Shown in pieces: positions 7,400 through 24,039 of a stretch of DNA of 64,000 nucleotides. Location: the NCBI GenBank assembly GCA_022565335.1, contig JAIUMY010000003.1:1861-65860 (forward strand), given 5' to 3'. The notes beneath the pieces were generated by a model. The model had not been told where the DNA came from. It was given only the letters and a program-made list of their open reading frames with translations, and made no database searches. The translations under genes and the position numbers were made by a program. How positions within the stretch are numbered: position 1 is the stretch's first letter; the number at the start of each line of letters is the position of its first letter. Source of the DNA: Opitutales bacterium (GTDB taxonomy: Bacteria > Verrucomicrobiota > Verrucomicrobiia > Opitutales > T3Sed10-336).

Positions 7400-8143
7400 A
7401 TGTCCCTGGTTGCCCGTAAAATCCATAAATCCTTCGTCTCCAGCGAAGGAGAGTCGATTGCCGTGCTGCGCGGGGTCTCGCTGGAATGCGTGCGGGGAAA
7501 AACCACTGGCCTGATCGGTCCCAACGGGGCGGGCAAGACCACCCTTCTGCGCATCCTCGCCACTCTGCTGCAACCGGACCAGGGGGAAGCCTTCATCGAA
7601 GGCCTGTCGCTTCGGGAAAACCCGGCCCTCGTTCGCCGAAAAATTTCGTTTCTCACCAATTCCGCAGAACTCTACCGTCGCCTAACCGTTCGGGAAACCC
7701 TTGAATATTTCAGCCGTCTGCACGGGCTCGCACCAAAGGTCTTTCAACAACAGCTCAAACGATTGACCGAGGAACTCGATCTGACGGATTTCCTGGACCG
7801 TCGGGGCGACCGCTTATCCACGGGAATGAAACAGCGCGCCGCCCTGGCCCGGGCAATTTTGCACGACCCGCCGGTTTTAATTTTTGATGAGCCCACCAAT
7901 GGACTTGATATCCTCGCCACCCAACGAATCCTTGCCTTTCTTAGAGAACGGCAACGGGAAGGGAAAACCATTCTTTTTTCCTCTCACCATCTCACCGAGG
8001 TGGAAGAACTGAGCCAACAGGTAATCTTTCTTGGAAAAGGCGAAATTCTCGCTCAGGGCTCCCTGAGTGAGATCCTTGAAACCACCGGACAAGCCACGTT
8101 CTCCGAGGCGGTCAACCACCTTTATCCAACCCGCACGCCATGA
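7400..8143 (+). CDS. ABC transporter ATP-binding protein (ABC-2/NatA-like)
   Basis: Walker A is GPNGAGKTT, the signature is LSTGMKQRAALARA, Walker B is LIFDEPTNGLD, and the H-loop is SSHH. An ATGA overlap links it to the downstream permease. Confidence 0.9.
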   Translation: MSLVARKIHKSFVSSEGESIAVLRGVSLECVRGKTTGLIGPNGAGKTTLLRILATLLQPDQGEAFIEGLSLRENPALVRRKISFLTNSAELYRRLTVRETLEYFSRLHGLAPKVFQQQLKRLTEELDLTDFLDRRGDRLSTGMKQRAALARAILHDPPVLIFDEPTNGLDILATQRILAFLRERQREGKTILFSSHHLTEVEELSQQVIFLGKGEILAQGSLSEILETTGQATFSEAVNHLYPTRTP

Positions 8144-9351
8144 AACCAGGAAGTTTCACCCATCAGACATGGACCGTTTTCCGCAAGGAAGCGAAGGAGA
8201 TCCTGCGTGACAAGAGAACCCTTTTTGCGATGATCGGAATTCCTCTCCTACTCATTCCGGGACTCTTTCTATTAATCGCCTTTCTGGCCTTTTTCTTTTT
8301 GCAAGAGGCCGAGCGGGAAACGGTGTTTTATGCCCTTGATGAGATTCGCGTGGAAACTTTTCCCGCCCTTGAGGTATTGGATCAATGGGATACTTGGCAA
8401 CCCCGTTCCCTAACCAACCCGCGCGAGCAAATTGAATCCCGGGAACTGCAAATCGTCATTCAAGAGAAAACCATAGAAAGCCCTGGGGACGACCGGATCC
8501 CCCGGTTCCAGATTCTTTACCATGAGGGAGAGATCCGCTCCCAAATGGCTGCGGAACGCCTGCACCAAGCACTCAACCGATGGCTGGAAAAACACCAGGC
8601 CGAGGAGTGGGAGCGGGCCGGATTAGATCCTGAACGGCGAACCCCTTTTCATGTCGAACGGCACAATCTGGCGTCTCCGCAAAAAGTGACCGGCGGACTT
8701 CTGGGGGGATTACTCCCCTATCTGGTGGTCATGCTGAGCCTTACCGGGGCGGCTTATGCGGCGCTGGACTTAACCGCCGGGGAAAAAGAGCGGGGAACCC
8801 TGGAAACCATCTTGAGTAGCCCTGTGGCCCGGGAAGCTTTAGTTCTGGGCAAATGGCTACTGACTTTCATAGCCTCCCTGTTTACCAGCCTCCTAACTCT
8901 TTGTTCGTTGGGGATTCTGCTTTTCAGCGTACCCCCTTTGCTATTTCCCCAAGCTGAAGGCAGCGACCATTTTCTTCCGGGCTTCGACGCCGGGGCACTT
9001 CTGGGCACTTTGGTTTTACTGTTGCCGCTGGCCGCCTTCTTTTCCGCCTTGCTTCTCTTGATCGGCATCTGGGCGCGCAGTTACCGCGAGGCCCAGTCGT
9101 ATCTTTCACCCGTTTTCCTGCTCGCTTTGTTGCCTGCCATTGTCTCCACCTTACCAGGGATTACCCCCAACGCTTTTCTTCTTTCCCTTCCCATTGTCAA
9201 CGTCTGTCTCCTTGCCCGCGAAATGTTTCTCGGTACCTATTTATGGATGCCCATTCTCGGAGTAATGGGGATGAATTTTCTCCTCGCCGCCTTGGCCTTA
9301 CTTTTAACGGGATATTTCTTCCGCAAGGAATCGGTTCTTTTTCGCTATTAG
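8140..9351 (+). CDS. ABC-2 family permease (NatB-like)
   Basis: The 403-aa protein has one N-terminal TM helix, a ~140-aa soluble loop and a C-terminal cluster of 5-6 TM helices. It is translationally coupled to the ATPase at 7400. Confidence 0.75.
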   Translation: MKPGSFTHQTWTVFRKEAKEILRDKRTLFAMIGIPLLLIPGLFLLIAFLAFFFLQEAERETVFYALDEIRVETFPALEVLDQWDTWQPRSLTNPREQIESRELQIVIQEKTIESPGDDRIPRFQILYHEGEIRSQMAAERLHQALNRWLEKHQAEEWERAGLDPERRTPFHVERHNLASPQKVTGGLLGGLLPYLVVMLSLTGAAYAALDLTAGEKERGTLETILSSPVAREALVLGKWLLTFIASLFTSLLTLCSLGILLFSVPPLLFPQAEGSDHFLPGFDAGALLGTLVLLLPLAAFFSALLLLIGIWARSYREAQSYLSPVFLLALLPAIVSTLPGITPNAFLLSLPIVNVCLLAREMFLGTYLWMPILGVMGMNFLLAALALLLTGYFFRKESVLFRY

Positions 9352-10362: not shown

Positions 10363-11193
10363 CTAGATCTCCCGGGAACGAAAGCTTACCACCGCCAGAA
10401 GGTTGTAAACGATAATATAAATCGCCGAAAGGCCGACCAGCGAACCAATCACCGACCAGGGCAGGGGCTCATACAGCGCCACATACTCGCCCACATTGAA
10501 AACCTGAAAATTGGGAAAGGCAAACCCCATCACCGCTACCCCCATTCGGGCCGGCCAGAAAGCAATCTCCGCCCAGGCGTCCCGGGCCAAATACTGAAGA
10601 TGGCAAATGATTAAAATGAAAAACGAAATCACCACCGTGAAAAGATTGGTGCGGGCAAACCCTGCCACAATCATCGTAATGGAAATCAAAATACCAAATT
10701 TCAACCACTGCAAAAACCCGACCCAAAGGATATCCCCATACAGAACTTTCCGCCCCTCCGGAAAATCTCTGGCAAAACGTTCCATCCCCATGAGAATTCC
10801 TTCCCGATACCAAAGGATGGCCATCAACAAAAGGGTCATCATGGCGGTGAAGGCCAGGACCACCGCCCAAACTCCGGTGAATTTCCCCAGAATAAACTCT
10901 ATCCGACGCACCGGTTTGGCCAGAATGGTCAGGGCGGTGCGGTTTTCAATTTCATTGAAAAACAACTGCGCCGCCCCGGCGATACTGAGAATCGAACCAA
11001 AGAAAACGATCGCCCCAAAACCAAAATCAGAGATGAATTTCAACTCGGAGAAGCCAAAATCCAGATCCCGGAAGTAGAACGAACTGACGATGAAGGCCGC
11101 GGCAATGAAAACCAAAAACAGAAACAGTTTCTGCCGGACCGCCTCGAGAAAGGTGTTTCCGGCAATCAATCGAATGATACGCAGACTATTCAT
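10363..11193 (-). CDS. ABC-2 type permease (NosY/GldF-like)
   Basis: This 276-aa polytopic protein has ~6 TM helices. It overlaps the upstream ATPase gene by 8 nt. Confidence 0.7.
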   Translation of the reverse strand: MNSLRIIRLIAGNTFLEAVRQKLFLFLVFIAAAFIVSSFYFRDLDFGFSELKFISDFGFGAIVFFGSILSIAGAAQLFFNEIENRTALTILAKPVRRIEFILGKFTGVWAVVLAFTAMMTLLLMAILWYREGILMGMERFARDFPEGRKVLYGDILWVGFLQWLKFGILISITMIVAGFARTNLFTVVISFFILIICHLQYLARDAWAEIAFWPARMGVAVMGFAFPNFQVFNVGEYVALYEPLPWSVIGSLVGLSAIYIIVYNLLAVVSFRSREI

Positions 11194-12115
11194 TTTCCGA
11201 ATCCTTTCCCGCTTTGTCAGAGGTTACCTGGGAGCCCAGTTGAACCGACTCGCTCCCCTGGCGATAGATGAGATCCGCTTTGCCGATCTCCCGTAAAAAC
11301 ACTTCGTCCAATCGGAGTTGTGGACGTTTAACCTGTCGCAAGTCGATGCCACGTTCCCCCAACCAACGGCGCAAGGCCTCGACCTCCGGTTCCGGCAATT
11401 GGTCGAGGCGAATCTCGGTATCGCCCTGCCCTTCGGTAATTTCCGCCAAAGGCCCCTGGCGAATGCAGCGACCTTTATTCATAATAGCCACATGGTCACA
11501 GATGTCCTCGACCTGAGCGAGTAAATGGGAACAAAGTAAAATGGTTTTTCCGGCTTCCTTGAGTTTGAGCACCAAACTGGAAATCTCCGCCGAGCCGACC
11601 GGGTCAACTCCGGCCGTTGGTTCGTCGAGGATAATCAACTGCGGATCATGCACCAGTGCCTGAGCAATGCCAATGCGCTGGAGCATCCCTTTACTGTAGG
11701 TTCCCACCCGTCGCCGGGCGGCATCCTTCAGCCCCACCCATTCAATTACCTCCCAAGCCCGCTCACGGGCCCGGGCAGCGGAGAGACCGCAGATTTTCCC
11801 CATTAAAACCACCATCTCCAGACCGCTCAGGTATTTGTAGAAGTATGGGGCTTCCGGCAAAAAACCAACCTCTTTGCGGGCGGCCGTTTTGTTACTGGGA
11901 AGCCCGTAAACCCGACACTCTCCCGCCGTGGGTGTCAACAAACCAAGAATAACCTTCATGGTGGTGCTCTTTCCGGAGCCATTGGGTCCCAAAAGACCAA
12001 ACACCTGGTTCTGTTCCACCCGCAGGGACAAATGGTCGACCGCCCGAAGTTTGTATTTCCCCAGACCAAGGGGAAAATCCTTGGTCAGTTCCTTGATTTC
12101 AATTGCCGGTGCCAT
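11186..12115 (-). CDS. ABC transporter ATP-binding protein (ABC-2 subfamily)
   Basis: Walker A is GPNGSGKST, the signature is YSKGMLQRIGIAQA, Walker B is IILDEPTAGVD, and the H-loop is CSHL. It also carries a C-terminal ~90-aa extension. Confidence 0.9.
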   Translation of the reverse strand: MAPAIEIKELTKDFPLGLGKYKLRAVDHLSLRVEQNQVFGLLGPNGSGKSTTMKVILGLLTPTAGECRVYGLPSNKTAARKEVGFLPEAPYFYKYLSGLEMVVLMGKICGLSAARARERAWEVIEWVGLKDAARRRVGTYSKGMLQRIGIAQALVHDPQLIILDEPTAGVDPVGSAEISSLVLKLKEAGKTILLCSHLLAQVEDICDHVAIMNKGRCIRQGPLAEITEGQGDTEIRLDQLPEPEVEALRRWLGERGIDLRQVKRPQLRLDEVFLREIGKADLIYRQGSESVQLGSQVTSDKAGKDSENE

Positions 12116-12124
12116 AGTAATAGA

Positions 12125-12397
12125 TCAGCGGATTTCAAAACCGCGAAACCCCTTCATTTGTTCCATGGATTTTTTCTCGGTCCGCTGAATATACCCTTCC
12201 ATTTCGGTTTCGATCGCCTGGACAAATTCTTCCACTTCTTTGGGAGAACCCTCCACCTGAAGTTCCACCCGGCCATCGGTAAGATTGCGAACCCAACCGC
12301 ACACCTCAAACCCCTGGGCGATTTGTCGAACGGTGTAGCGAAAACCCACCCCTTGGACCCGTCCCTCAAAAAAAACTTCCCAATGAACTGAACTCAT
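12125..12397 (-). CDS. acyP: Acylphosphatase
   Basis: The 90-aa protein carries the GRVQGVGFRYTV phosphate-binding loop and the GWVRNLTDGRVELQVEG motif. It overlaps fabF by 4 nt. Confidence 0.85.
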   Translation of the reverse strand: MSSVHWEVFFEGRVQGVGFRYTVRQIAQGFEVCGWVRNLTDGRVELQVEGSPKEVEEFVQAIETEMEGYIQRTEKKSMEQMKGFRGFEIR

Positions 12398-13650
12398 GGT
12401 TTATAGCGGGCCACCACCAAACTGGCATTATGCCCGCCGAATCCGAGATTGTTGCTCATCGCAATCTCCACCGGTGCCGAAACTTTCTGATTGGGAACAT
12501 AGTCCAAATCCAATTCGTCCTCCGGTTCCTCGTAGTTGATGGTCGGGGCGATTTCTCCGGTTTCGATGGCTTTTAAACAAACGATCGCCTCCACGCCTCC
12601 GGCGGCTCCCAAGAGATGGCCAGTCATCGATTTGGTCGAACTCATTTTGAGGCGGTAGGCATGATCGCCGAAGGTATCCTTGACGGCCTTGGTCTCGACC
12701 CGGTCATTAAAAGGTGTCGAGGTGCCGTGCGCGTTGATGTAGTCAACCTGCTCCCGTTCCAGGCCACCGTTTTTCAACGCTTTCTTCATGCACAGGGACA
12801 ATCCCGCCCCACTGGTTTCCGGGGCGGTCACATGATAAGCATCGCAGGTGGCGGCATAACCTTTGATTTCGCCGAGGATATTGGCCCCCCGGGCCAAAGC
12901 GTGCTCAAGGGTTTCCAAGACCACAATACCGGCCCCTTCTCCCATAATAAAACCGTCCCGCCCCCGATCAAAGGGACGGCTCGCCCGTTGCGGCTCATCG
13001 TTACGGGTGCTCATGGCTTTCATGGAACAAAAACCGGCATACCCCAAAGGGGTGATCGCTGCTTCACTGCCTCCGGCAATCATTACCTGGGCCTCCCCGC
13101 TGCGAATAATACGAAGGGATTCACCAATGGCATGGGTGGCGGTCGCACAGGCGCTGACCACGGCAAAATTAGGGCCCTTCATGCCAAACTCTATGGCGAC
13201 CAAACCACTGGCAATGTTGGCGATTAGAGAAGGGATCATAAACGGCGAAACCCGTCTTGGTCCGCGTTCGTGCAAGACCCGGCTCTGGTTTTCAATGGTC
13301 CACATCCCCCCGATTCCGGAACCGACCAACACCCCGACCTCACCGGGATCCTCGGCAGTCATATCCAGCCCCGCCGAGGCCACCGCTTTCTTACTCGCGG
13401 CCAAGGCAAAATGGGCATACCGGTCACTGCGGCGGGCCTCCTTCGGGTCCATCCACTCCTCCGCTTTAAAGTCCTTGCATTCGGCCCCGATGCGACAGGC
13501 AAATTTTTCCGTATCAAAGGAATCAACCGTGGAAATCCCACTCTCTCCGGCCAATAGGCGATTATAAAACTCATCAACTTCATTGCCGAGGGAGGAAACC
13601 ACCCCCATACCGGTTACGACAACGCGTTGCGAAAAATTGGAAGACGACAT
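12394..13650 (-). CDS. fabF: 3-oxoacyl-[acyl-carrier-protein] synthase II
   Basis: The KAS II catalytic triad context is visible: VVSACATATHAIG (Cys), INAHGTSTPFND (His) and SMTGHLLGAAGG (His). The C-terminal NNLGFGGHNASLV is also present. Confidence 0.95.
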   Translation of the reverse strand: MSSSNFSQRVVVTGMGVVSSLGNEVDEFYNRLLAGESGISTVDSFDTEKFACRIGAECKDFKAEEWMDPKEARRSDRYAHFALAASKKAVASAGLDMTAEDPGEVGVLVGSGIGGMWTIENQSRVLHERGPRRVSPFMIPSLIANIASGLVAIEFGMKGPNFAVVSACATATHAIGESLRIIRSGEAQVMIAGGSEAAITPLGYAGFCSMKAMSTRNDEPQRASRPFDRGRDGFIMGEGAGIVVLETLEHALARGANILGEIKGYAATCDAYHVTAPETSGAGLSLCMKKALKNGGLEREQVDYINAHGTSTPFNDRVETKAVKDTFGDHAYRLKMSSTKSMTGHLLGAAGGVEAIVCLKAIETGEIAPTINYEEPEDELDLDYVPNQKVSAPVEIAMSNNLGFGGHNASLVVARYKP

Positions 13651-15444: not shown

Positions 15445-18354
15445 ATGAGTATTTCCCGCGCCGTAACCATTCTGATCGGATTAGTCCTAATTGTGATCCT
15501 CGCGCCCTTGTCCCAGTTTATGACCATGATGACGGTCAACGCGGACATTGAAACGGCCACTCCGGTGGGTTGGGCTATCGGGATCATCTTCACGCTGTTG
15601 CTGGCGTGGGCCTTTATCCGCTCCATGGCCAAAGTGCAGGCTATTCCGCGACAGAATCTGGTCATCCTTTTCGTCATGCTGACCATCGCCGCACCGGTGA
15701 TGAATCTCGGCTTGGTCCGGACTTTTTACAATGCCAACTCGGCCGCTCTGGATGAGTATTTCTTCCAGGGCAATCCGACCTACCGGACGATTTTTGACAG
15801 CATGAGCGACAGCTGGTTTCCCAAGGTTCCCACCGATGAGGGACTGGCATGGAACCGGGCGGATCGGTTTTTACGGTTTCTAACCGATAATGAGATTATC
15901 CGCGACAGCGACCAGGCCCGGCGCTCCCTGGTCGGGGCCTTGGAAACGGTGGAAGCGGAACTGGTTCGTCGTCAGCGTTTGGAGGAATTGGAAGAACTTC
16001 CCCCGGTAGAATCCATCGGCGACGAGACTTTGGCCGAACTGGTGGAGATAGAGTCCCTGAGTGAACGAATCCCTTACCTGCTTTTTGATGATGCCCGGCG
16101 ACTGCTGGACGATGATTCAGCCGGAATTTTCCCGCACCTTGGTTTGGCGGAAGAGATCGAGGCGCAACAAGAACAACGGGAGGCACGAAGCGAGGAAATC
16201 ACTCCCTTGCTTATAACCGAGCTGTCGGATTATGACGAATTTCTCCTCACCATGGTGGAGGAGTTTCAATTCACCATGGACCCCGCTATGGTGCTGCGGG
16301 TGGATGAGGAATTGAACCGTCTACCCGAGGAAGAAAGAGAGCTTCGCCAGCGGATTGCCGAACAGGAAATCGCCCCGCGTTGGCAGGAATGGCAGGCCCA
16401 GGTCTCGGTGCTTACCGAGGTTGACCGAAGAGAGGTCCGCAATGGTTTGATGGAAGCTTATTTATCGCAGCAAGCCGAACTCTCACGGGCTGAGCGGGAT
16501 GAGATGCTCTCCGGTTTTGCCTTTCGTCTCAGCCGGAGCGAGCGGCGGAGCCTGATTCGCCAAGACGGTTCGGATGAGCCCAATCAAAATATATTTGCCT
16601 TCCGCAACGGGCTCTGGGATGATTCCTCCAGTCGGCAGATGCGGGACCAGGAAAGTTTTTGGAGCAACATGGCTTCGGCCCGCGAGCGAATCCCCTGGGG
16701 ACTCTGGGTTAAACCGATGTTCAACTGGGGTATGCTGTTCCTGGCCATCTTTTTGTTCATGATGTGCCTCGCCGAATATTTCCGGCGAAAATGGGTGGAG
16801 CGGGAAAACCTGGCCTTCCCCTTGGTCGAGATCGCCGACGGGCTGATCCGACACGATTACAAACTGGAAACCGCCGACGATGTTCGGGAACCGGAAAAGC
16901 GGGGCGTTCTCTTTGACCGATTCTTTATTTTTGGCGCCTTTCTCGGGTTTTTAATCCTCTCATTGGAAGCCATCAACCACTATGGCTTGGTCGGTAATGA
17001 TATGCGCATCGTTTTCGATGCCAGCGGGACCCTGTTTACCAGCGGTATATTATCGGAAATTGACAAGGTGGTCTTTGTCTTTTCCCCCATTGTCATCGGC
17101 ATCGCCTTCTTGATCAGTCTTGAGTTGAGCTTTTCCATCTGGATGATCTTTTTCATCTATACCCTGCTGAGCTGGATCATGCGGCTCATGGCCGACGGAG
17201 CCTTCAATACCGGGCTCTACACCGGCTGGGCCGGAGGATCGAACTACCCCTATCCGATGGAGCAATTGCTCGGTGCAGTCGTCTGTTTTACTCTCTTCCT
17301 CCTGATAAAATCCTGGAAAACGAAAAGCCGTCCCAACACCGGAGAAGTCCCGGATCAGTACGTCCCTCCCCGCCTGACCATGGCCGGACTGATTGTTTTA
17401 CCGATTTTCATTTTCATCATGATCTGGAACATCGGGGTCAATAGTCCGTTCGTCATTCTTCTGTTTGGCCTTCTGGTTATGGCGATCACCATCGCGGCGG
17501 CCCGGGTCCGGGCGGAAACGGGTCTCCCCACCCATCATGTTACCTACGATTTCACCAAAATGCCGATGGTCCTCGGCCTAACCAGTGGGATGGGGGCCAA
17601 AAACTACGCCGCGTTCCTGAACATTGTGTTCCTTCCCTGGACCCTGATCTTCCGCAGTTTGCCCCAACAATTGGAAAATATCGAGCTGGCCCGGCGCTAT
17701 AAGTTGCGTTACAGCGTGGTTGCCGTAGCCTCCCTCCTGGCCTTCGTGGTGGCTATCGGCGCCGGTTTATTCAGTTTCCTGATGTTGTCCCACTACTTCG
17801 GCGATGGGATGCAGGGAGCCTCTCTGCGTGAAGGCGCGGCGACCATCAACAATGTCAATATGGCCAAATATCCCCTGTGGGTTGGCCACTTCCAGGGAGA
17901 AGGTTCCCTTGAGATGCACAACACGTTCTCCGGCGTCCATGTCTTTTTCATGGTCGTGGGCTTTGTCGTCATCCTGGCCTTGACCCTCCTGCGGAAATAT
18001 TTCCTCAGCTTTCCCCTGCACCCAATTGGCTATCTGGTCCTCCTTTTCAGCCTCTACTACCACTGGATATCGCCCTACCACAAGGGGGAAGGTTTCACGA
18101 ATGAAGCCTCGCTGGTCTGGGGTGGCGTACTGGTGGCCTGGGGCTTCAAAAAACTGATTATCAAATACGGTGGGATGAATTCCTACAAAGCCGCCAAACC
18201 CTTCTTTATCGGCCTGGTGATCGGGTCCGTCTTCTGTGTCTTCTGCTGGAACATGCTCGATCTACTGGCCATGCTCATGGACCAAAGTGGTTCGGACGCC
18301 AACTTCATCGAACCTTTCCAAAACCACCAATTGTTCAGCCCCCGCTTTTACTAA
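15445..18354 (+). CDS. 969-aa polytopic membrane protein, OPT-superfamily-like, with ~325-aa acidic coiled-coil insertion
   Basis: About 3 N-terminal TM helices are followed by an E/D/R-rich soluble segment (aa ~95-420, e.g. RRQRLEELEELPPVESIGDETLAELVEIESL) and then >10 TM helices. The motif ENLAFPLVEIADGLI and the C-terminal KKLIIKYGG..AKPFFIGLVIG parallel KLPFPLAPIAAEGAI and RKFGKERW..PILAVGFAAG in the 686-aa protein. Confidence 0.6.
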   Translation: MSISRAVTILIGLVLIVILAPLSQFMTMMTVNADIETATPVGWAIGIIFTLLLAWAFIRSMAKVQAIPRQNLVILFVMLTIAAPVMNLGLVRTFYNANSAALDEYFFQGNPTYRTIFDSMSDSWFPKVPTDEGLAWNRADRFLRFLTDNEIIRDSDQARRSLVGALETVEAELVRRQRLEELEELPPVESIGDETLAELVEIESLSERIPYLLFDDARRLLDDDSAGIFPHLGLAEEIEAQQEQREARSEEITPLLITELSDYDEFLLTMVEEFQFTMDPAMVLRVDEELNRLPEEERELRQRIAEQEIAPRWQEWQAQVSVLTEVDRREVRNGLMEAYLSQQAELSRAERDEMLSGFAFRLSRSERRSLIRQDGSDEPNQNIFAFRNGLWDDSSSRQMRDQESFWSNMASARERIPWGLWVKPMFNWGMLFLAIFLFMMCLAEYFRRKWVERENLAFPLVEIADGLIRHDYKLETADDVREPEKRGVLFDRFFIFGAFLGFLILSLEAINHYGLVGNDMRIVFDASGTLFTSGILSEIDKVVFVFSPIVIGIAFLISLELSFSIWMIFFIYTLLSWIMRLMADGAFNTGLYTGWAGGSNYPYPMEQLLGAVVCFTLFLLIKSWKTKSRPNTGEVPDQYVPPRLTMAGLIVLPIFIFIMIWNIGVNSPFVILLFGLLVMAITIAAARVRAETGLPTHHVTYDFTKMPMVLGLTSGMGAKNYAAFLNIVFLPWTLIFRSLPQQLENIELARRYKLRYSVVAVASLLAFVVAIGAGLFSFLMLSHYFGDGMQGASLREGAATINNVNMAKYPLWVGHFQGEGSLEMHNTFSGVHVFFMVVGFVVILALTLLRKYFLSFPLHPIGYLVLLFSLYYHWISPYHKGEGFTNEASLVWGGVLVAWGFKKLIIKYGGMNSYKAAKPFFIGLVIGSVFCVFCWNMLDLLAMLMDQSGSDANFIEPFQNHQLFSPRFY

Positions 18355-18357
18355 GCC

Positions 18358-21300
18358 ATGTCCTTTTCTTTTTCCCGCTTCCTCCCTTCCCTGACCCGCC
18401 AAGCCTTTTTGGTGGCCTTGCTCACCGGGACCGGACTGTCCGCCCCGGGACTCCTCGCCGACCAGAATGCGGACTTCGTCGAGCGACTTTCCCCGGAACG
18501 ACAGAACCAACTTCTCAGCTTCGACCTGTTCGAAAATGCCTCCCTGCGCGAAATCGCCGCGCGTACCCAGGAAGAAACCCTTCGCCCGCTGATCGAGGAA
18601 ATTCTCAGCGTGGACAGCCTCTCGATAGGGGTCCGCGAGGTTGACGAAAATGATCGGGCCGAAATCCATCATCTTCTTCTCGACCACTTGAACAAACTCG
18701 AGCCTTACGGGGTCGAATACGTCGGCTCGCTCACCGGGATTGCCGCCGTTCCGGTTTCGGTGGACCGGCGCCTTGACCCCGACGAGCGCGAAGCCCCCTC
18801 GGCGTTGACCATTGGCGAGGAACAAATCACCGTCCACCCCCTCTGGCCCAACGGTCCGATGCCCAGTCTTGCCCCCAAAGAGGGAATCACCGGAAAACTC
18901 GTCGACATTGGCTCCGGCCGCTGGAGTGATCTGAATGGAAAAGACCTGCGGGGCAATATCGCGGTAATGTCCTTCCGGGGCGGGAACAATTTCGAACGGG
19001 CCTTCTACCTCGGAGCCCGCGCCATCCTGATCGTCGAGGACAATAACGTGGATATGGAAAACGCTGAACGGCTTTTCCGTCACACTCCCCTTCCCTACCC
19101 GCGCTTTTATCTACCCCGCGCCGAGGGCCAGGCATTGTTGGAGCAAATCAACCAATCCGAAAATCCCATCGAAGCAACCCTGAACGGAGGGCAAGTCATT
19201 GAAAACCGGCCCATCGAATCGATCTTCGCCTTTCTCCCCCCCGACGAGGAAAGAACTCTGGAAGTCGGCGAAGATACTCACCTTCGTCTCATTGCCGACC
19301 AATTCGGAGTCTCCACACGGGATCTTCTGCGAGCCAACGATAAGACCTCCCCAAACGTTACCGAGGGAGACGAAATTATCATTCCCGGCCGCACTGATAT
19401 TTTCACCATTCCCGAAGGAGACCTTATCAGTCGTCTGGCGAATCGCTACGGCACGACCCCCGACGATTTCCGGGAGGCCAATGATTGGGACGAGGGTCAA
19501 ACGTTGCAGCCCGGAGACTCCTATCTCGTTCCCAACCGCGAAGACCCCTTCGTTATCACCGTCAATATCGATACCGTCTCGGTGGTTCCCGACCTGCCCC
19601 ACGGTGCCCACCAAGCGAAAAATATCGCTTTTGCCCTGAATACCATGGAACACCTGGCGACCAGTGAAAACAGCTGGCGGCGCCGGGGCATTCTCTTTGC
19701 CTTCATGGACGGCGATACGCAGGGGGGCATCGCCAGCCGGAAGTTGGCGGAGCACTATCAACTCTACCACAATCGTCTGCGTACCGCACACGGCGAAGAT
19801 CTGGCCGCGGAAATCGAAAATTATGAGGGGGCCATGGCCTTCTTCGATCCGGATCGTTCCATACAGGATATGGACCGCGAATATGCCATGTGGTTTGCTA
19901 ATGATTGGATCGTTCCGCGCCTCGAGGATGTCCGTATTGACATTGGGGAAAAACGGGTCGCCCTCATTAACGAACTGCTGGAAATGCCCGATCCGGATCC
20001 GGGACCAGGGGAAATTCGCCATCCGGACCTGGAGAAAATGTCCCCTGCGGAAATCGAAGCACTCCGCGAAGAGCGCCGCGAACTGCGACAGCGTCAGGCT
20101 TATCAGGAAAATCGTCGGGACCGGTTACAGGAACTGCGTTTACAAACAATTGAGCAACGACGCCTGAGTTTCCAAGACCGTCTGGAAAGTTTCCATGATA
20201 TCATTACGGAGAACCCGGACACCAATTTCCCGGACCGGATAGCTGATGCGATGAAGGGTGAATCCTTTGCCGCTCTTTTCGGGGAAACAGATATGACCTT
20301 CGAGTCTCTGAAGGAGCGTTTCCTGGTGGAGATGGAGGAAGAGAAGGAGGCCCAAGCCTACCTGCTGAACAACTTGGATTTGGCCGAAAAGCTCTATCCC
20401 ATCCTGCATCCCGCGGACGAAGAAGACCCCCGTTTGGGATGGTTCCTCGACTTATCCAGCGACAGCCGCACCATCGGCCTCCCAGCTCTGGACAGTTCGG
20501 ATTTCCGGGGCCGGCTCCCCGGTGACGGCGCAAATCATGGACGGGATTTGGAAAACTCCTTCCAGTACGCTCTCTCTCTCGGCCACATCCGCGCGGGTTG
20601 GGAAGAACAATGGAGCTTTTACCGCCGGGAGGATTCCCTGGACTTCCCCGTTCTCCCTGCCCGCCAAGCCCCCATCTATGGAGATTTCTGGGCCGCCCTC
20701 CGAGTCGGTGTTCTCCCTATGGGGAATTTTAATGACCGCCTGTCCCGCTTGGACACCCCGCACGACACCCTCGAAAATATCAATTTTGAGAACTTTTCCA
20801 TTGTCGCGCGGAATGCCCTTTTCCTGATGCAACTCGGGGCGGAAAGCCCTACCGACTCCAGCGGTCCCTCCCGCATGAGCCGCCCGCGCTTTACCCGCAT
20901 CGGGGGACAGACCGTGGAGGCCAGCATCCGCTCCGCCCTCGACGCCGAAGACCCGGTGGGAGGAACCATCGTCCATTATCCGGGAATCCGCACCCAGGAA
21001 GAGCGCAACAACCACAACACCAACGCCTATCGTGGAACCCGTAGAAGTTTTCAACGGGTCAGTATGCTCAACGGACGATACCGCGTCCCCTTGGAAAACA
21101 TCGGTTTTTCCAACATGATGAACCATATTTATGCCTATCATCTGAACCGGGATCGGGCTATTTTTGATAAAATTGCCACCCAAGGTCTTTTGGGTGCCGC
21201 CACCGAAGCCCAGACACCCGCTTTCCAGATGATCGAAGGCCGCGAGGCGGAGAAAAAAATCATTCTGGTGGATGTCGCCCCTCTGGTCTTTTTTGCGGGC

Positions 21301-24039
21301 AGCGAACCGCATGATTATCAAATTTTAGGAAGTGGAAACCACGACCTCCGGGTTCTTGAAGCGGTCACTCGAGGCAACCCGCGGGAATATGCGCTGGAAA
21401 ACCCGGTGCGCCATTTTGCCGAACTCGAAACCCTCGGCAACATTATCTACATGAACGAAGGGGGCCGAGCTTCCATCCTGTACCAGCGAACCGGCCAGAA
21501 TATGTTTATGCTGGTCGGGCGTTTGGTCGAAGACGAGCGCTTTGGCGGCACCCGTCGGGGGGAAGGTATTCGGATTGGCCCCACCGATGACGGAGAGGAG
21601 AATACTTTTTACCCCTTTACCGCCATGCGCGTCGCCGAACAGATGCTGGACTTGGCCATTGACCGGCAGGACACCTATGCGGACTTCGGGATTCGGTCCC
21701 AATCGATCGCCCGCGCCATCGCCCGCAGCCAGGAAAAATTAAATGAGGCCTATGCCTTCTACGAAGAAAAAGAATGGCAAAAGGCCGAAGGCGCAGCCCG
21801 GGAGTCCTGGGGGATGCTGGTCAAATTCTACCCCCGCATCCTCGGACTGGGCCGCGAGGCGGTTTTCTCTGTTATCATGATCATGGCGATCCTGTTGCCA
21901 GCTTCCTATTTTCTCGAAAAACTTCTCATTGGCAGCAAAGCCATCATCGCCCAGATTTTTGGCACCAGTACCCTCTTCGCCCTGGGGACGGTCTTTTTAT
22001 GGCTGTTCCATCCGGCCTTCTCCATCGCCGTATCGCCCTTTATTGTGGTGATTTCTTTTACCATGATCCTGATGTCGATCATCGTGTTGACCATCTGTTA
22101 TCAGCGATTCGAGACCCTGGTGCGTCGGGCCCGAATTGCCGGCGGTGAGGTCGAAGGCGAGGAGATCAGTTTGGTGAGTTCTCTGGGCACCGCCCTTTCC
22201 ATGGGGGTTTCCAATCTGAAAAAACGCCCTTCCCGGACGTTCCTCACCTCCCTTACGGTAACCGTTCTAACCTTCTCCATTGTCGCCTTCGTCTCGGTGA
22301 CCGGCGAAGAAACCGTCTCCGAGCGTTCCGTTTCGCTCGACCACAATGTCGAAGGACGCACCATTGAAGCCATGGAGCCAGCCTTTGAGGGCATGCTCTT
22401 TCGGAGTTTCAACTGGCAATCGCTCACCTCCTCCTTCGTCGATGCTGTTGAAACGGAATTCGGTTCCCATCTCCCCACTACCACCCGCGCCTGGTACATT
22501 GAGCGGGAAGGAGGCAATAATGCCGCCGTTGAGGGAGCGAACCAAGTGGAAATACGCTTGGGTGACCGCCAGCACATTTCCACGGGTATCATGGTCTTCG
22601 AACCCAACGAAACCGAATTCAGTGGCCTGCACCGGGCCGTATCCAACGCCGAATGGTTCCGGCCCGCCCAATGGGAAGAAGGCATCGCCCCGGATCGTAA
22701 TGTCATCATCCTCCCCGACAACGCCGCCCAGCGCCTGGGAATTACCGAAGAGCACATTTTCGACGAAAACGGTCAACGCCGTCCCGTCGGGGAATTGCCC
22801 TCGGTTATCATGCAAAACCAGCAATGGTCGGTCATCGGCATTCTTGACGTGGAAAAAGCCAATCGTATCCGCGATGTGAACGGCCGCAGCCTTGCCATGG
22901 TGGACTACGTCCGCTCCAACATGACCGGTAATGCCCCCGGCGAACTGATCAACGAAGATCCGGTTTCCTACCACTTTGACTGGGAACGTCTGGTTATCGT
23001 TCCCATGGCCGCGCGCACCGATGTCAACGCCCGCCTGCGCTCAGTGGTCGTACAGTTCCAGGAAGATACCGATGTCGAACAGATCTACCATGATGTAGCC
23101 CTTCGTTTGAACCGACCCTTCTTCGCTCATCACGATGAAAATCTAAGCTTCATTACCACCCGTACCCAACGTGACATCGGAGGCATCGCCAAAATCATCG
23201 TTCCCATCATTCTCTGCGTGCTCATTGTTCTCAACACCATGATGGGCACCGTGGACGAACGTCGAGGGGAGGTAGGTATGCTCGGCGCGGTCGGTCTATC
23301 GCCGAAACAGATATCCTTCCTTCTCCTCTCGGAATCGGCGGTGTACTCGGTCATCGGCATTCTCTTCGGGATGTTCATAGGCCTTCTCTTTGCCAACAGT
23401 ATTCCCTTCTTCAATGAAGTTCTGGGGGTCGCCTTCCTCAGCGAGTTGTCCTTCAACTTCACTTCGGTGATTTCCATGGGATTGGCCCTGGGAACCGGCG
23501 TGATCGTTATGATCGCCACCCTGATCCCCGCCAAACGGGCCGCCACTCTGGCCGCTCCGAGCGGGATGTCCAACTGGGAATTGCCGGAGCCTGCAGACGA
23601 TAAGAACATTTACTTTGAACTGCCCTTCACCCTCACCCGGGGCAATGCAGTGGGGATGTCCGCCTTTTTCCGGCAGTTTCTGCTCAATCATACCGACGCC
23701 AGTTCGGAAGACTTCACCTGCCGCGATATTCGTCTGGAAAACCGGGTGACCGAAGAGGGGGGGCCTGCCCTGCGCATTGAATCCTCGATGTGGCTGAGTC
23801 CCTACGACCTTGACGTGGCCCAGCACTTTATCATGGATATCGTTCCCACCAAGAACCCCGGAGTTTACGCGGTGGAATTGATTCTGGAGCGTACCTCGGG
23901 TGCCGAGGATGCTTGGATCCGCATCAATTACCGCTTTTTGAACAATGTCCGACACCAATTCCTGCTTTGGCGGAACCTTTCCCCTGAAGAGCGCAACAAC
24001 TTCATCAAACGCGGTGCTGAACTGCTGCAAGACGACTGA
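18358..24039 (+). CDS. 1893-aa fusion protein: signal peptide, PA-like domain, 2x LysM, degenerate M28-like module, coiled coil, unknown ~470-aa region, TM cluster, FtsX/MacB-type permease module, ~165-aa C-terminal domain
   Basis: The gene is a single uninterrupted ORF that starts 3 nt after the previous stop. The PA-like segment is GKLVDIGSGRWSDLNGKDLRGNIAVMSFRGGNNFERAFYLGARAILIVED. The FtsX TM1 context is SNLKKRPSRTFLTSLTVTVLTFSIVAF. The FtsX core is VLNTMMGTVDERRGEVGMLGAVGLSPKQISFLLLSESAVYSVIGILFGMFIGL. Confidence 0.8.
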   Translation: MSFSFSRFLPSLTRQAFLVALLTGTGLSAPGLLADQNADFVERLSPERQNQLLSFDLFENASLREIAARTQEETLRPLIEEILSVDSLSIGVREVDENDRAEIHHLLLDHLNKLEPYGVEYVGSLTGIAAVPVSVDRRLDPDEREAPSALTIGEEQITVHPLWPNGPMPSLAPKEGITGKLVDIGSGRWSDLNGKDLRGNIAVMSFRGGNNFERAFYLGARAILIVEDNNVDMENAERLFRHTPLPYPRFYLPRAEGQALLEQINQSENPIEATLNGGQVIENRPIESIFAFLPPDEERTLEVGEDTHLRLIADQFGVSTRDLLRANDKTSPNVTEGDEIIIPGRTDIFTIPEGDLISRLANRYGTTPDDFREANDWDEGQTLQPGDSYLVPNREDPFVITVNIDTVSVVPDLPHGAHQAKNIAFALNTMEHLATSENSWRRRGILFAFMDGDTQGGIASRKLAEHYQLYHNRLRTAHGEDLAAEIENYEGAMAFFDPDRSIQDMDREYAMWFANDWIVPRLEDVRIDIGEKRVALINELLEMPDPDPGPGEIRHPDLEKMSPAEIEALREERRELRQRQAYQENRRDRLQELRLQTIEQRRLSFQDRLESFHDIITENPDTNFPDRIADAMKGESFAALFGETDMTFESLKERFLVEMEEEKEAQAYLLNNLDLAEKLYPILHPADEEDPRLGWFLDLSSDSRTIGLPALDSSDFRGRLPGDGANHGRDLENSFQYALSLGHIRAGWEEQWSFYRREDSLDFPVLPARQAPIYGDFWAALRVGVLPMGNFNDRLSRLDTPHDTLENINFENFSIVARNALFLMQLGAESPTDSSGPSRMSRPRFTRIGGQTVEASIRSALDAEDPVGGTIVHYPGIRTQEERNNHNTNAYRGTRRSFQRVSMLNGRYRVPLENIGFSNMMNHIYAYHLNRDRAIFDKIATQGLLGAATEAQTPAFQMIEGREAEKKIILVDVAPLVFFAGSEPHDYQILGSGNHDLRVLEAVTRGNPREYALENPVRHFAELETLGNIIYMNEGGRASILYQRTGQNMFMLVGRLVEDERFGGTRRGEGIRIGPTDDGEENTFYPFTAMRVAEQMLDLAIDRQDTYADFGIRSQSIARAIARSQEKLNEAYAFYEEKEWQKAEGAARESWGMLVKFYPRILGLGREAVFSVIMIMAILLPASYFLEKLLIGSKAIIAQIFGTSTLFALGTVFLWLFHPAFSIAVSPFIVVISFTMILMSIIVLTICYQRFETLVRRARIAGGEVEGEEISLVSSLGTALSMGVSNLKKRPSRTFLTSLTVTVLTFSIVAFVSVTGEETVSERSVSLDHNVEGRTIEAMEPAFEGMLFRSFNWQSLTSSFVDAVETEFGSHLPTTTRAWYIEREGGNNAAVEGANQVEIRLGDRQHISTGIMVFEPNETEFSGLHRAVSNAEWFRPAQWEEGIAPDRNVIILPDNAAQRLGITEEHIFDENGQRRPVGELPSVIMQNQQWSVIGILDVEKANRIRDVNGRSLAMVDYVRSNMTGNAPGELINEDPVSYHFDWERLVIVPMAARTDVNARLRSVVVQFQEDTDVEQIYHDVALRLNRPFFAHHDENLSFITTRTQRDIGGIAKIIVPIILCVLIVLNTMMGTVDERRGEVGMLGAVGLSPKQISFLLLSESAVYSVIGILFGMFIGLLFANSIPFFNEVLGVAFLSELSFNFTSVISMGLALGTGVIVMIATLIPAKRAATLAAPSGMSNWELPEPADDKNIYFELPFTLTRGNAVGMSAFFRQFLLNHTDASSEDFTCRDIRLENRVTEEGGPALRIESSMWLSPYDLDVAQHFIMDIVPTKNPGVYAVELILERTSGAEDAWIRINYRFLNNVRHQFLLWRNLSPEERNNFIKRGAELLQDD
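19258..19533 (+). other. Two consecutive LysM-like (peptidoglycan-binding) modules inside the 1893-aa ORF
   Basis: The first module, aa ~301-343, reads LEVGEDTHLRLIADQFGVSTRDLLRANDKTSPNVTEGDEIIIP. The second, aa ~348-392, reads FTIPEGDLISRLANRYGTTPDDFREANDWDEGQTLQPGDSYLVP. Both fit the LysM pattern x-V-x-x-GD-T/L-x-x-IA-x-x-y-g-x(4-6)-l-x-x-N-x(6-10)-G-x-x-l-x-iP. Confidence 0.7.
23173..23538 (+). other. FtsX-family 3-TM core (TM2-TM4) of the 1893-aa protein
   Basis: This segment covers aa ~1606-1727. Its helix-loop pattern and the E-R-x-x-E-v-G-x-L-x-A-x-G motif match FtsX-domain permeases. It is preceded by a ~290-aa extracytoplasmic segment between TM1 and TM2, as in MacB/LolC. Confidence 0.75.

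Follow-up and report, generated by a model that had tools for sequence, protein, structure and literature searches.

Type VII ABC systems, among them MacB, LolCDE, FtsEX and YbbAP, are few in number and well studied, and their work in the cell envelope is mechanical. In BceAB the permease is asymmetric, with a large periplasmic domain on only one of the FtsX halves, and EnvC, which works with FtsEX, is a LytM-type activator. The M28 peptidase fold is used non-enzymatically by nicastrin, nicalin and the transferrin receptor. Members of the MacB family do not move a substrate across the inner membrane; dimerization of the ATPase leads to movement of the stalk helices and the periplasmic domain (PMC5985334). 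In FtsEX systems it is the periplasmic domain that acts on the wall hydrolases (PMC7668044, PMC5985334), and LolCDE and YbbAP-TesA are type VII systems that extract lipoproteins or lipids from the membrane (PMC12646458, PMC8333309).

The locus described here lies on contig JAIUMY010000003.1 (assembly GCA_022565335.1) of an Opitutales bacterium of the Verrucomicrobiota. A stretch of 64,000 nucleotides was analysed, which is called the window. An ATG-initiated open reading frame (ORF) at 18358-24039 (+) encodes a protein of 1893 amino acids (aa), referred to below as the giant protein, and the gene is part of a six-gene operon. The initial annotation, made from the sequence alone, had proposed an FtsX permease that carries, in the same chain, a PA-like segment, two LysM modules and an M28-like module deficient in metal ligands. 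The fusion itself was borne out by Pfam, by AlphaFold and Foldseek and by alignment, with a permease of the MacB/FtsX type. The giant protein does not classify as a catalytic M28 peptidase, as FtsX, as LolC/E or as part of a tripartite MacAB pump, and it does classify as a MacB-fold protein with LysM modules.

Architecture of the giant protein

The C-terminal part of the giant protein has all elements of a MacB-fold (type VII ABC) permease: the first transmembrane (TM) helix (TM1, aa 1296-1314), a periplasmic domain in a loop of about 290 aa, TM2-4 (aa 1607-1723) and a coupling helix. AlphaFold models were built with a 29-sequence family alignment, and the model of aa 1140-1893 had a pLDDT of 84 and a pTM of 0.64. 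The best Foldseek matches of this model ranged from E=7e-10 to 1e-7 and were headed by MacB (5gko, E=7e-10). Spr0694-0695, LolCDE, HrtBA, YtrEF, YbbAP and BceAB (7tcg) were also matched, while FtsX proper was a weak fold match (E~0.03). At the sequence level Pfam FtsX matched aa 1615-1730 (E=1.8e-14), the PDB matches of the C terminus were LolC, LolF and MacB, and Pfam MacB_PCD was found in distant relatives. The FtsX assignment of the initial annotation was replaced by a MacB/LolC-type one. The NCBIfam model FtsX_actino reached 11.3 bits with a cutoff of 250 and no other FtsX model was among the matches listed, the LolC/LolE models reached 16-27 bits with cutoffs of 362-540 and covered the C-terminal FtsX domain only, and the MacB models also remained far under cutoff. 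The permease thus resembles MacB/LolCE more than FtsX. R1290, R1293 and T1294 were invariant in the family; the Arg-rich cytoplasmic linker carries the canonical NLKKRPSRT motif.

With MacB, LolCDE, HrtBA and YtrEF the giant protein shares the four-TM topology of the FtsX domain, the large periplasmic domain between TM1 and TM2, the coupling helix between TM2 and TM3, a separate ATPase of the MacB/LolD type and, presumably, mechanotransmission (PMC5985334). In contrast to these systems, about 1250 residues (ectodomain and three TM helices) are added at the N terminus and a cytoplasmic tail of 159 aa at the C terminus. The tail was modelled as beta-alpha-beta4-alpha2 and contains the motifs LPFT, WLxPYDLxV and QFLLWR. 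Searches of Pfam and of PDB sequences gave no match for it. Foldseek matches of the tail to START/SRPBCC, BamC-N or DcrB-like folds (E 0.015-0.07) were judged too weak to name a fold.

The ectodomain model (aa 36-1165) had a pLDDT of 90 and a pTM of 0.89. Foldseek matched it over 420 columns to PA-containing M28 proteins, with 2ek8 (E=3.5e-12) and Bacillus subtilis BSAP/YwaD (6hc6, E=8e-12) found at a probability of 1.00, and further matches were the transferrin receptor, GCPII and PaAP. In the family alignment the predicted M28 fold comprises about aa 36-835 and is broken by three inserts, a PA-like one (156-297), the LysM pair (301-392) and a helical one of 220 aa (471-690). The PA region of 2ek8 aligned to aa 168-296 (phmmer, E=0.0085), and Pfam PA gave no match. 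The LysM modules were recognized by Pfam in two stretches above the gathering score (E=1.1e-10, 41.7 bits with a cutoff of 20.9); a local HMM placed them at 302-343 and 349-392, and PDB LysM proteins matched aa 301-393 at E~1e-3. The pair sits in the loop preceding the strand FVITVNID, between two beta-strands of the M28 fold. Several boundaries of the initial annotation were changed by these results. The PA-like segment ends at about aa 297 instead of 245, and the LysM pair was placed correctly but is inserted inside the M28 domain. The supposed coiled coil is helical but is really the third M28 insert, and the stretch of about 470 aa described as unknown sequence was resolved by the model into the rest of the M28 fold, a beta-rich domain and a three-helix stalk.

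The giant protein is assigned to M28 by its predicted fold and by transitive homology; its own sequence does not carry the assignment. Pfam Peptidase_M28 (PF04389) did not match the giant protein at E<=1, and the M28 core gave a sub-threshold match to the Pfam model 'Nicastrin large lobe' (aa 399-465, E=0.17). A profile of the 83-residue M28 core was made from the subfamily of Verrucomicrobiota and Planctomycetota (PVC) only. Its best real match was 4r12_A (E=0.23), which we take to be Dictyostelium nicastrin, and spurious designed 'Pizza' proteins were also retrieved. A precomputed Pfam Peptidase_M28 match was present only in relatives that have no LysM modules. The N-terminal profile of these LysM-less relatives matched 2ek8 (E=5e-23), YwaD (E=3e-17) and the Vibrio aminopeptidase AAP, as well as nicalin (E=7e-10), the transferrin receptor (E=2e-8) and nicastrin (E=4e-5). 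The order of M28 N-terminal part, PA insert and M28 core is shared with the PA-containing M28 aminopeptidases (Aneurinibacillus 2ek8, YwaD/BSAP 6hc6, PaAP). These aminopeptidases are secreted as soluble di-zinc enzymes and have the residues H,D,E-E,D,H, whereas the giant protein has N,H,D-T,D,D.

The zinc-site positions were mapped by transferring the relatives' alignments to 2ek8, YwaD and AAP through the family alignment, and Vibrio AAP numbering is used. The ligands H97, D117 and E152 correspond to N403, H418 and T454, respectively, the catalytic base E151 to D453, and the ligand H256 to D799. The ligand D179 was assigned to D698 by motif and strand position only, with no direct alignment. 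In the fifth-ligand region 'vdtPfDtld' of the relatives was aligned with 'YHTPNDTLD' of 2ek8. The giant protein therefore keeps at most one M28 zinc ligand, probably the fourth (the Asp D698), and the catalytic Glu is lost, so that the ligand deficiency read by eye in the initial annotation also held when it was scored on an alignment. None of 154 family representatives retained three or more of the six canonical M28 catalytic residues. The module is therefore very probably non-catalytic, as had been supposed.

Across the family the helical insert is as short as 9 aa and as long as 302 aa, and in the homologues P0014, P0016 and P0017 it contains two TM-like hydrophobic stretches. Pfam and PDB sequence searches gave nothing for this insert or for the MacB loop. 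The beta-rich domain was conserved in all top 150 family representatives and had no Pfam or PDB sequence match. The stalk continues as a 50-residue helix in the C-terminal model.

The cluster of three TM helices and the MacB-like unit were found as initially described, by hydropathy, model and Foldseek. Since the three extra helices return the chain to the cytoplasm, the ectodomain would stand beside the MacB periplasmic domain. The first ~1130 aa are predicted to be periplasmic, as proposed earlier, on the same side as the MacB loop. This fits the signal sequence, which is predicted from a hydrophobic stretch (aa 16-34) after R7 and R14, and it follows from the odd number of extra TM helices and the positive-inside loops. 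Some homologues (P0017, P0046, P0051) carry a third LysM module within the MacB periplasmic loop, which is independent support for a shared periplasmic side.

Family size and integrity of the gene

A sequence-pattern scan that took one representative genome for each species gave at least 591 loci that encode a relative of the giant protein, in at least 10 phyla. An exhaustive hmmsearch of 1.84 billion representative proteins with a profile covering aa 835-1893 gave 1645 representatives at E<=1e-30. The best 150 of these 1645 all had E<1e-237, nearly all spanned the full profile, and most were 1450-2150 aa long. The fusion had been thought unusual, but it belongs to a family of fused proteins that is very large. 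A preliminary reading as a rare family was discarded: a word-indexed search had given 29 clusters and a profile re-search none more, and both were overturned by the exhaustive searches. The figure of 29 clusters is an artefact of the word index, and rarity judged from the indexed search alone would mislead.

Relatives with LysM modules (40-93% identity) came from Opitutales, Oceanipulchritudo, Puniceicoccaceae and other Verrucomicrobiota and from Phycisphaerae/Planctomycetaceae. A second clade with 25-30% identity was found in Armatimonadota, Latescibacterota, Gemmatimonadota, Omnitrophota, Fervidibacterota, Anaerolineales, Nitrospirota, WS1 and others. Matches of this clade covered residues ~130-1890 of the giant protein, so the fusion of ectodomain and permease is conserved in the family. 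LysM modules were present in 45 of 174 representatives, almost always paired and at the same insertion point, and were confined to the PVC subfamily. Wall binding therefore cannot be the core function of the family. The initial annotation had suggested looking for homologues in which the fusion is split into separate genes, but no convincing case of such a split emerged. Of the best 150 representatives 20 were short; these begin mid-domain, carry no signal sequences and were read as fragments. Four representatives, P0076 (2451 aa), P0101 (3053 aa), P0116 (2769 aa) and P0118 (2930 aa), have much larger ectodomains, with 1400-2100 residues preceding the conserved C-terminal 1000.

An NCBI protein from a metagenome-assembled genome (MAG) of the Opitutales (Verrucomicrobiota) has the same sequence as the giant protein and is named 'LysM peptidoglycan-binding domain-containing protein' and nothing more. 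A homologue with 93% identity is present in a second Opitutales MAG (locus L007). The ratio of nonsynonymous to synonymous substitution rates (dN/dS) between the two was 0.056 overall. By region it was 0.03-0.05 in the M28 core, 0.13 in the LysM pair, 0.015 in TM2-4 and 0.035 in the cytoplasmic tail, and every part of the ORF is under purifying selection. The ORF was suspected of being a chimeric mis-join or a pseudogene in decay solely for its unusual length, and nothing was found in favour of this. The same architecture was seen in more than 80 independent assemblies, closed chromosomes included, the genes around it are spaced tightly as in an operon, and the AlphaFold models were confident across the domain junctions. 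The recurrence and the low dN/dS in all regions exclude a chimera, pseudogene or chance ORF, and the artefact explanation is given practically no weight.

The operon and its partner proteins

The six operon genes, all on the forward strand, are separated by 44, 3, 11, 24 and -1 bp, and the genes flanking them are housekeeping genes (Table 1). The two ATPases share 53% identity, and the Walker A, signature, Walker B and H-loop motifs are intact in each. The best partial NCBIfam matches of ATPase 1 were MacB-NBD, DevA, LolD and FtsE, all under cutoff. Judged by their sequences, the operon thus contains two putative cognate ATPases of the MacB/LolD/FtsE type. The small permease has four TM helices with a loop of only about 13 aa between TM1 and TM2, and it has no Porter/Sabre periplasmic domain.

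Table 1. Positions of the operon genes and of the parts of the giant protein in the window
Feature	Positions	Strand	Evidence
ABC ATPase 1, 245 aa	14663..15400	+	Pfam ABC_tran E=6.6e-33; MacB/LolD/FtsE-type
DUF6785 + DUF6784 polytopic membrane protein, 969 aa	15445..18354	+	Pfam DUF6785 E=1e-52, DUF6784 E=4.6e-17; TM scan
Giant protein, 1893 aa	18358..24039	+	
Predicted signal peptide or N-terminal signal anchor, aa 1-35	18358..18462	+	Hydrophobic aa 16-34 after R7, R14
M28-like fold, N-terminal part, aa 36-155	18463..18822	+	Aligns with 'GSRxxGxxG...' of LysM-less relatives matching M28; pLDDT >90
PA-like insert, aa 156-297	18823..19248	+	phmmer to 2ek8 PA region; PLWPNG...G.IAL..F...GA.AV block conserved; Foldseek
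Tandem LysM pair, aa 301-392	19258..19533	+	Pfam LysM; PDB LysM proteins; missing here in LysM-less relatives
M28 core motifs 1-3, aa 393-470	19534..19767	+	Family alignment mapped on 2ek8, YwaD, AAP; weak nicastrin matches
Helical insert inside M28, aa 471-690	19768..20427	+	Model helices 507-542, 563-596, 648-683
M28 core motifs 4-5, aa 691-835	20428..20862	+	D698 in LDLS; D799 in LDTPHDT; alignment and census
Family-specific beta-rich periplasmic domain, aa 836-1085	20863..21612	+	Mostly beta-strand in model
Three-helix periplasmic stalk into membrane, aa 1086-1165	21613..21852	+	Helices 1088-1109, 1115-1136, 1140-1164
Three extra TM helices back to cytoplasm, aa 1166-1250	21853..22107	+	Hydropathy 1168-1186, 1196-1225, 1228-1246; model; Arg-rich loop after third
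Cytoplasmic linker, amphipathic helix, MacB-type TM1 (NLKKRPSRTFLT motif), aa 1251-1314	22108..22299	+	Hydropathy and model
MacB-like periplasmic domain, TM1-TM2, aa 1315-1606	22300..23175	+	Foldseek 5c59 (E. coli MacB) E=4.5e-4, TM 0.52; whole MacB, LolCE chains
FtsX-domain TM2-TM4 and coupling helix (ERRGEVGMLGAVGLSP), aa 1607-1734	23176..23559	+	Pfam FtsX; LolC 7arh_C E=8.3e-6; Foldseek 5gko
Conserved cytoplasmic tail, aa 1735-1893 (159 aa), then stop	23560..24039	+	Family alignment; model
p686, polytopic membrane protein, 686 aa	24051..26111	+	Remote DUF6785 relative by hhalign
Minimal FtsX-type permease, 195 aa	26136..26723	+	Pfam FtsX E=4.9e-19; TM scan
ABC ATPase 2, 270 aa	26723..27535	+	Pfam ABC_tran E=1.5e-33; start overlaps stop of small permease

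Synteny was surveyed at 87 loci, and some counts are limited to fully flanked loci (12 PVC, 33 non-PVC). The most constant neighbour of the giant gene was p686, which was found immediately downstream at 59 of 82 loci (23/24 in the LysM clade, 36/58 in other phyla). The p686 protein encoded downstream of a 27%-identical giant protein was 37% identical to that of the window. A DUF6785 gene lay immediately upstream at all 18 PVC loci and at 18 of 54 other loci. At least one DUF6785-type partner was present at 12/12 fully flanked PVC loci and 29/33 non-PVC ones, and all six operon genes were present at all 12 of the former. The small permease always adjoined an ATPase gene. Permease and ATPase occurred together at the 12 fully flanked PVC loci, with two ATPases, and at 9 of the 33 non-PVC loci, with a single ATPase. 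The PVC clade appears to have duplicated the ATPase. Two different FtsX-type permeases with one ATPase in the non-PVC operons suggest an asymmetric pair on an ATPase dimer, the pattern of LolC/LolE/LolD2.

The DUF6785/DUF6784 protein and p686 had no detectable similarity to a known transporter family or solved structure in sequence and profile searches. For p686 no Pfam, NCBIfam or PDB match was obtained, either as a single sequence or as a profile, and all names retrieved by the homologue search with DUF6785 were 'hypothetical' or 'DUF6785 family'. An hhalign comparison of the N-terminal 120 columns of p686 with DUF6785 gave a probability of 95% and E=3.7e-8 (58 versus 43 sequences), and with smaller alignments the probability was 5%. 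p686 carries a conserved E-K-L-P-F-P-L-A-P-I motif. The DUF6785/DUF6784 protein has a helical insert of about 330 aa after TM3 (aa ~95-420) that is predicted to be periplasmic. The insert was found in the PVC group only, with 0-41 aa elsewhere. Within PVC its length tracked that of the helical insert in the M28 fold (rho 0.53, p 0.02), which is only a hint with phylogeny uncontrolled. In the literature library that was searchable, no paper was found to mention DUF6785, DUF6784, the giant family or its architecture.

Neither a peptidoglycan hydrolase nor an amidase or EnvC-like gene was found in the conserved operon across the 87 loci. A MacA/HlyD-type adaptor gene was also absent from the six operon genes and from conserved positions at these loci, and no outer-membrane component was linked to the operon. 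In this the operon differs from those of MacB and LolCDE. It has no MacA/TolC-type or LolA-type gene and encodes DUF6785-type proteins as partners, with a permease that lacks a periplasmic domain. YbbAP-TesA is a precedent for a type VII ABC unit with a hydrolase-fold partner (PMC12646458). In YbbAP-TesA and BceAB, however, one 10-TM chain contains both permease halves, and an active enzyme is the separate partner. Here the two halves have a gene each, and the hydrolase-fold module is part of the giant protein and predicted to be inactive.

At least 15 non-PVC operons have two extra genes after p686, both of which are missing from PVC operons. In locus L039 the first (16417-17352) encodes a conserved protein of about 311 aa with a CxxC motif, and the second (17349-17798) a PqqD-like (peptide-chaperone/RRE) protein of about 149 aa (Pfam E=7.4e-10). 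The other loci with this pair are L038, L041, L047, L052, L063, L066, L072, L073, L076, L078, L081, L083, L085 and L086. Short-form DUF6785/DUF6784 genes were also found away from giant genes, at L087 9001-10959 and L088 7899-9872. The former has four enolase-superfamily dehydratases as cluster neighbours, together with dehydrogenases and a sulfatase, and occupies a place where a transporter is expected; the latter adjoins an ABC-2 permease. Upstream of the operon the window contains two unrelated ABC-2-type pairs of ATPase and ABC2_membrane permease at 7400-9351 (+) and 10363-12115 (-), and beside them a FabF-like ketoacyl synthase at 12394-13650.

Proposed mechanism and alternatives

With moderate confidence the operon is read as encoding a mechanotransducing complex of the envelope that is driven by ATP and that works through a receptor, non-catalytic and tethered to the wall. 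The structural identity of the giant protein is much more certain than this mechanism. The giant protein would be the main subunit of an uncharacterised and widespread class of type VII (MacB/LolCE-like) ABC machines. Its C-terminal half would act as a standard mechanotransmitting permease unit with a family-specific cytoplasmic tail, and the zinc-less M28/PA fold within the N-terminal 1130 residues would serve as a binding or clamping module, not as an enzyme. In the PVC branch the LysM pair, inserted near the former active site, presumably tethers the ectodomain to peptidoglycan. The giant protein may pair asymmetrically with the minimal 195-aa FtsX-type permease, and the pair would be powered by the two paralogous ATPases, or by one outside the PVC branch. 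Two DUF6785-type polytopic membrane proteins would join the complex; we infer this multi-subunit membership from synteny only. ATP binding would close the ATPase dimer and push on the stalk helices, so that the periplasmic domains move, and the movement may alter the hold of the ectodomain on a ligand or its gating of the membrane partners.

The systems closest to the giant protein in logic are nicastrin, nicalin and the transferrin receptor. They share the M28 fold, in several cases with a PA or apical insert, and have lost the zinc ligands. They serve as ectodomains of membrane complexes, and a complex around the giant protein is suggested by synteny only. The giant protein differs from them in being bacterial, in being fused to an ABC permease rather than to a single TM anchor and in having LysM modules, helical inserts and the beta-rich domain.

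Three points weigh against the proposed mechanism. The direct sequence evidence for M28 in the giant protein itself is weak (E=0.17 and 0.23). At 24 of the 33 fully flanked non-PVC loci no ATPase and small permease are adjacent, so the pairing may not be obligatory and the giant protein may be homodimeric. The LysM-less majority of the family conserves Tyr, Glu and His at the positions of H97, D117 and E151, and this set could be functional, even catalytic, so that 'non-catalytic' is safest for the PVC branch only.

The last point bears on the idea that the M28-like domain is a still active hydrolase with a non-canonical site, in which the ABC unit regulates or positions the peptidase. In the LysM-less clade the Tyr-Glu-His set is followed by Phe/Cys/His and accompanied by Asp at the D99, D179 and H256 positions, and it is a possible alternative functional site. 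The PDB chain 2anp of AAP has a His at the catalytic Glu position in the alignment, and this variant reportedly keeps some activity. However, the giant protein's own clade is variable at these positions (P/R/N, K/R/F/L/H, D/E, T/N/A), Lys or Arg often replaces the bridging Asp, and none of the 154 representatives counted above keeps half of the canonical residues. An active peptidase is therefore considered very unlikely. Regulation of cell-wall hydrolysis in the manner of FtsEX, as the initial annotation had inferred, would let the wall-binding pseudo-peptidase replace a partner of the EnvC/PcsB type, with ATP hydrolysis switching a hydrolase. The LysM pair with its Pfam match (E=1.1e-10) and the type VII ABC fold agree with it, and a pseudo-enzyme as activator would parallel the LytM-type EnvC. 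With FtsEX and EnvC, PcsB, CwlO or RipC the giant protein shares a type VII ABC output on a non-catalytic or regulatory periplasmic module and, in the PVC branch, a predicted peptidoglycan-binding element. The module is fused, however, and not recruited; it has an M28/PA fold and not a coiled-coil/LytM, CHAP or NlpC-P60 one, and the MacB-like periplasmic domain of about 290 aa is larger than that of FtsX. The analogy is further weakened by the missing hydrolase, amidase and EnvC-like genes, by the FtsX-specific NCBIfam scores far under cutoff and the weak FtsX fold match, and by constant partners that are polytopic membrane proteins, next to a minimal permease and ATPases. About three quarters of the family representatives have no LysM, so that wall binding is a late addition. 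Such a role is judged unlikely.

Transport or extraction is an unlikely alternative too, though slightly less so, in which the DUF6785-type proteins are transporters or flippases, the ectodomain is a receptor for a peptide- or GlcNAc-containing ligand and the ABC unit gives the energy. Muropeptides, chitin oligomers or a ribosomal peptide might, equally tentatively, be exchanged between the ectodomain and these transporters. M28 and PA folds serve as scaffolds for binding peptides and GlcNAc polymers are ligands of LysM, the DUF6785 gene of L087 occupies the expected place of a transporter in a sugar-acid/sulfatase catabolic cluster, and at least 15 non-PVC operons add the PqqD-like peptide-binding gene and a conserved second gene. 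Known type VII systems also extract membrane substrates (PMC12646458, PMC8333309). Yet the catabolic context is a single locus and the PqqD-like genes are missing from PVC operons. Neither DUF6785 nor p686 resembles a known transporter or structure, and the operon has no linked outer-membrane or adaptor component.

Within the reading as a mechanotransducing envelope complex a bolder form can be put forward, although the chances are against it. The operon may encode a new ABC-powered envelope machine of bacteria in which a dead-peptidase ectodomain, similar to nicastrin and nicalin, is the gatekeeper or receptor for the DUF6785-type proteins, a new superfamily of transporters or membrane enzymes that would include p686, with an asymmetric permease partner without a Porter domain. 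To our knowledge the Porter domain has been thought universal in type VII ABC systems, and the minimal FtsX-type permease without a periplasmic domain bears on the need for it in mechanotransmission.

Both the architecture of the giant protein and the size of its family would surprise a specialist. The family represents a large uncharacterised branch of the type VII ABC systems, present in hundreds of species of at least 10 mostly uncultured phyla, with a dead M28/PA working end fused in cis. DUF6785, DUF6784 and the Pfam-less 686-aa family are now assigned a genomic context and a testable set of partners. Bacteria, like eukaryotes, would thus repeatedly have reused the M28 fold as a non-enzymatic ectodomain of membrane complexes.

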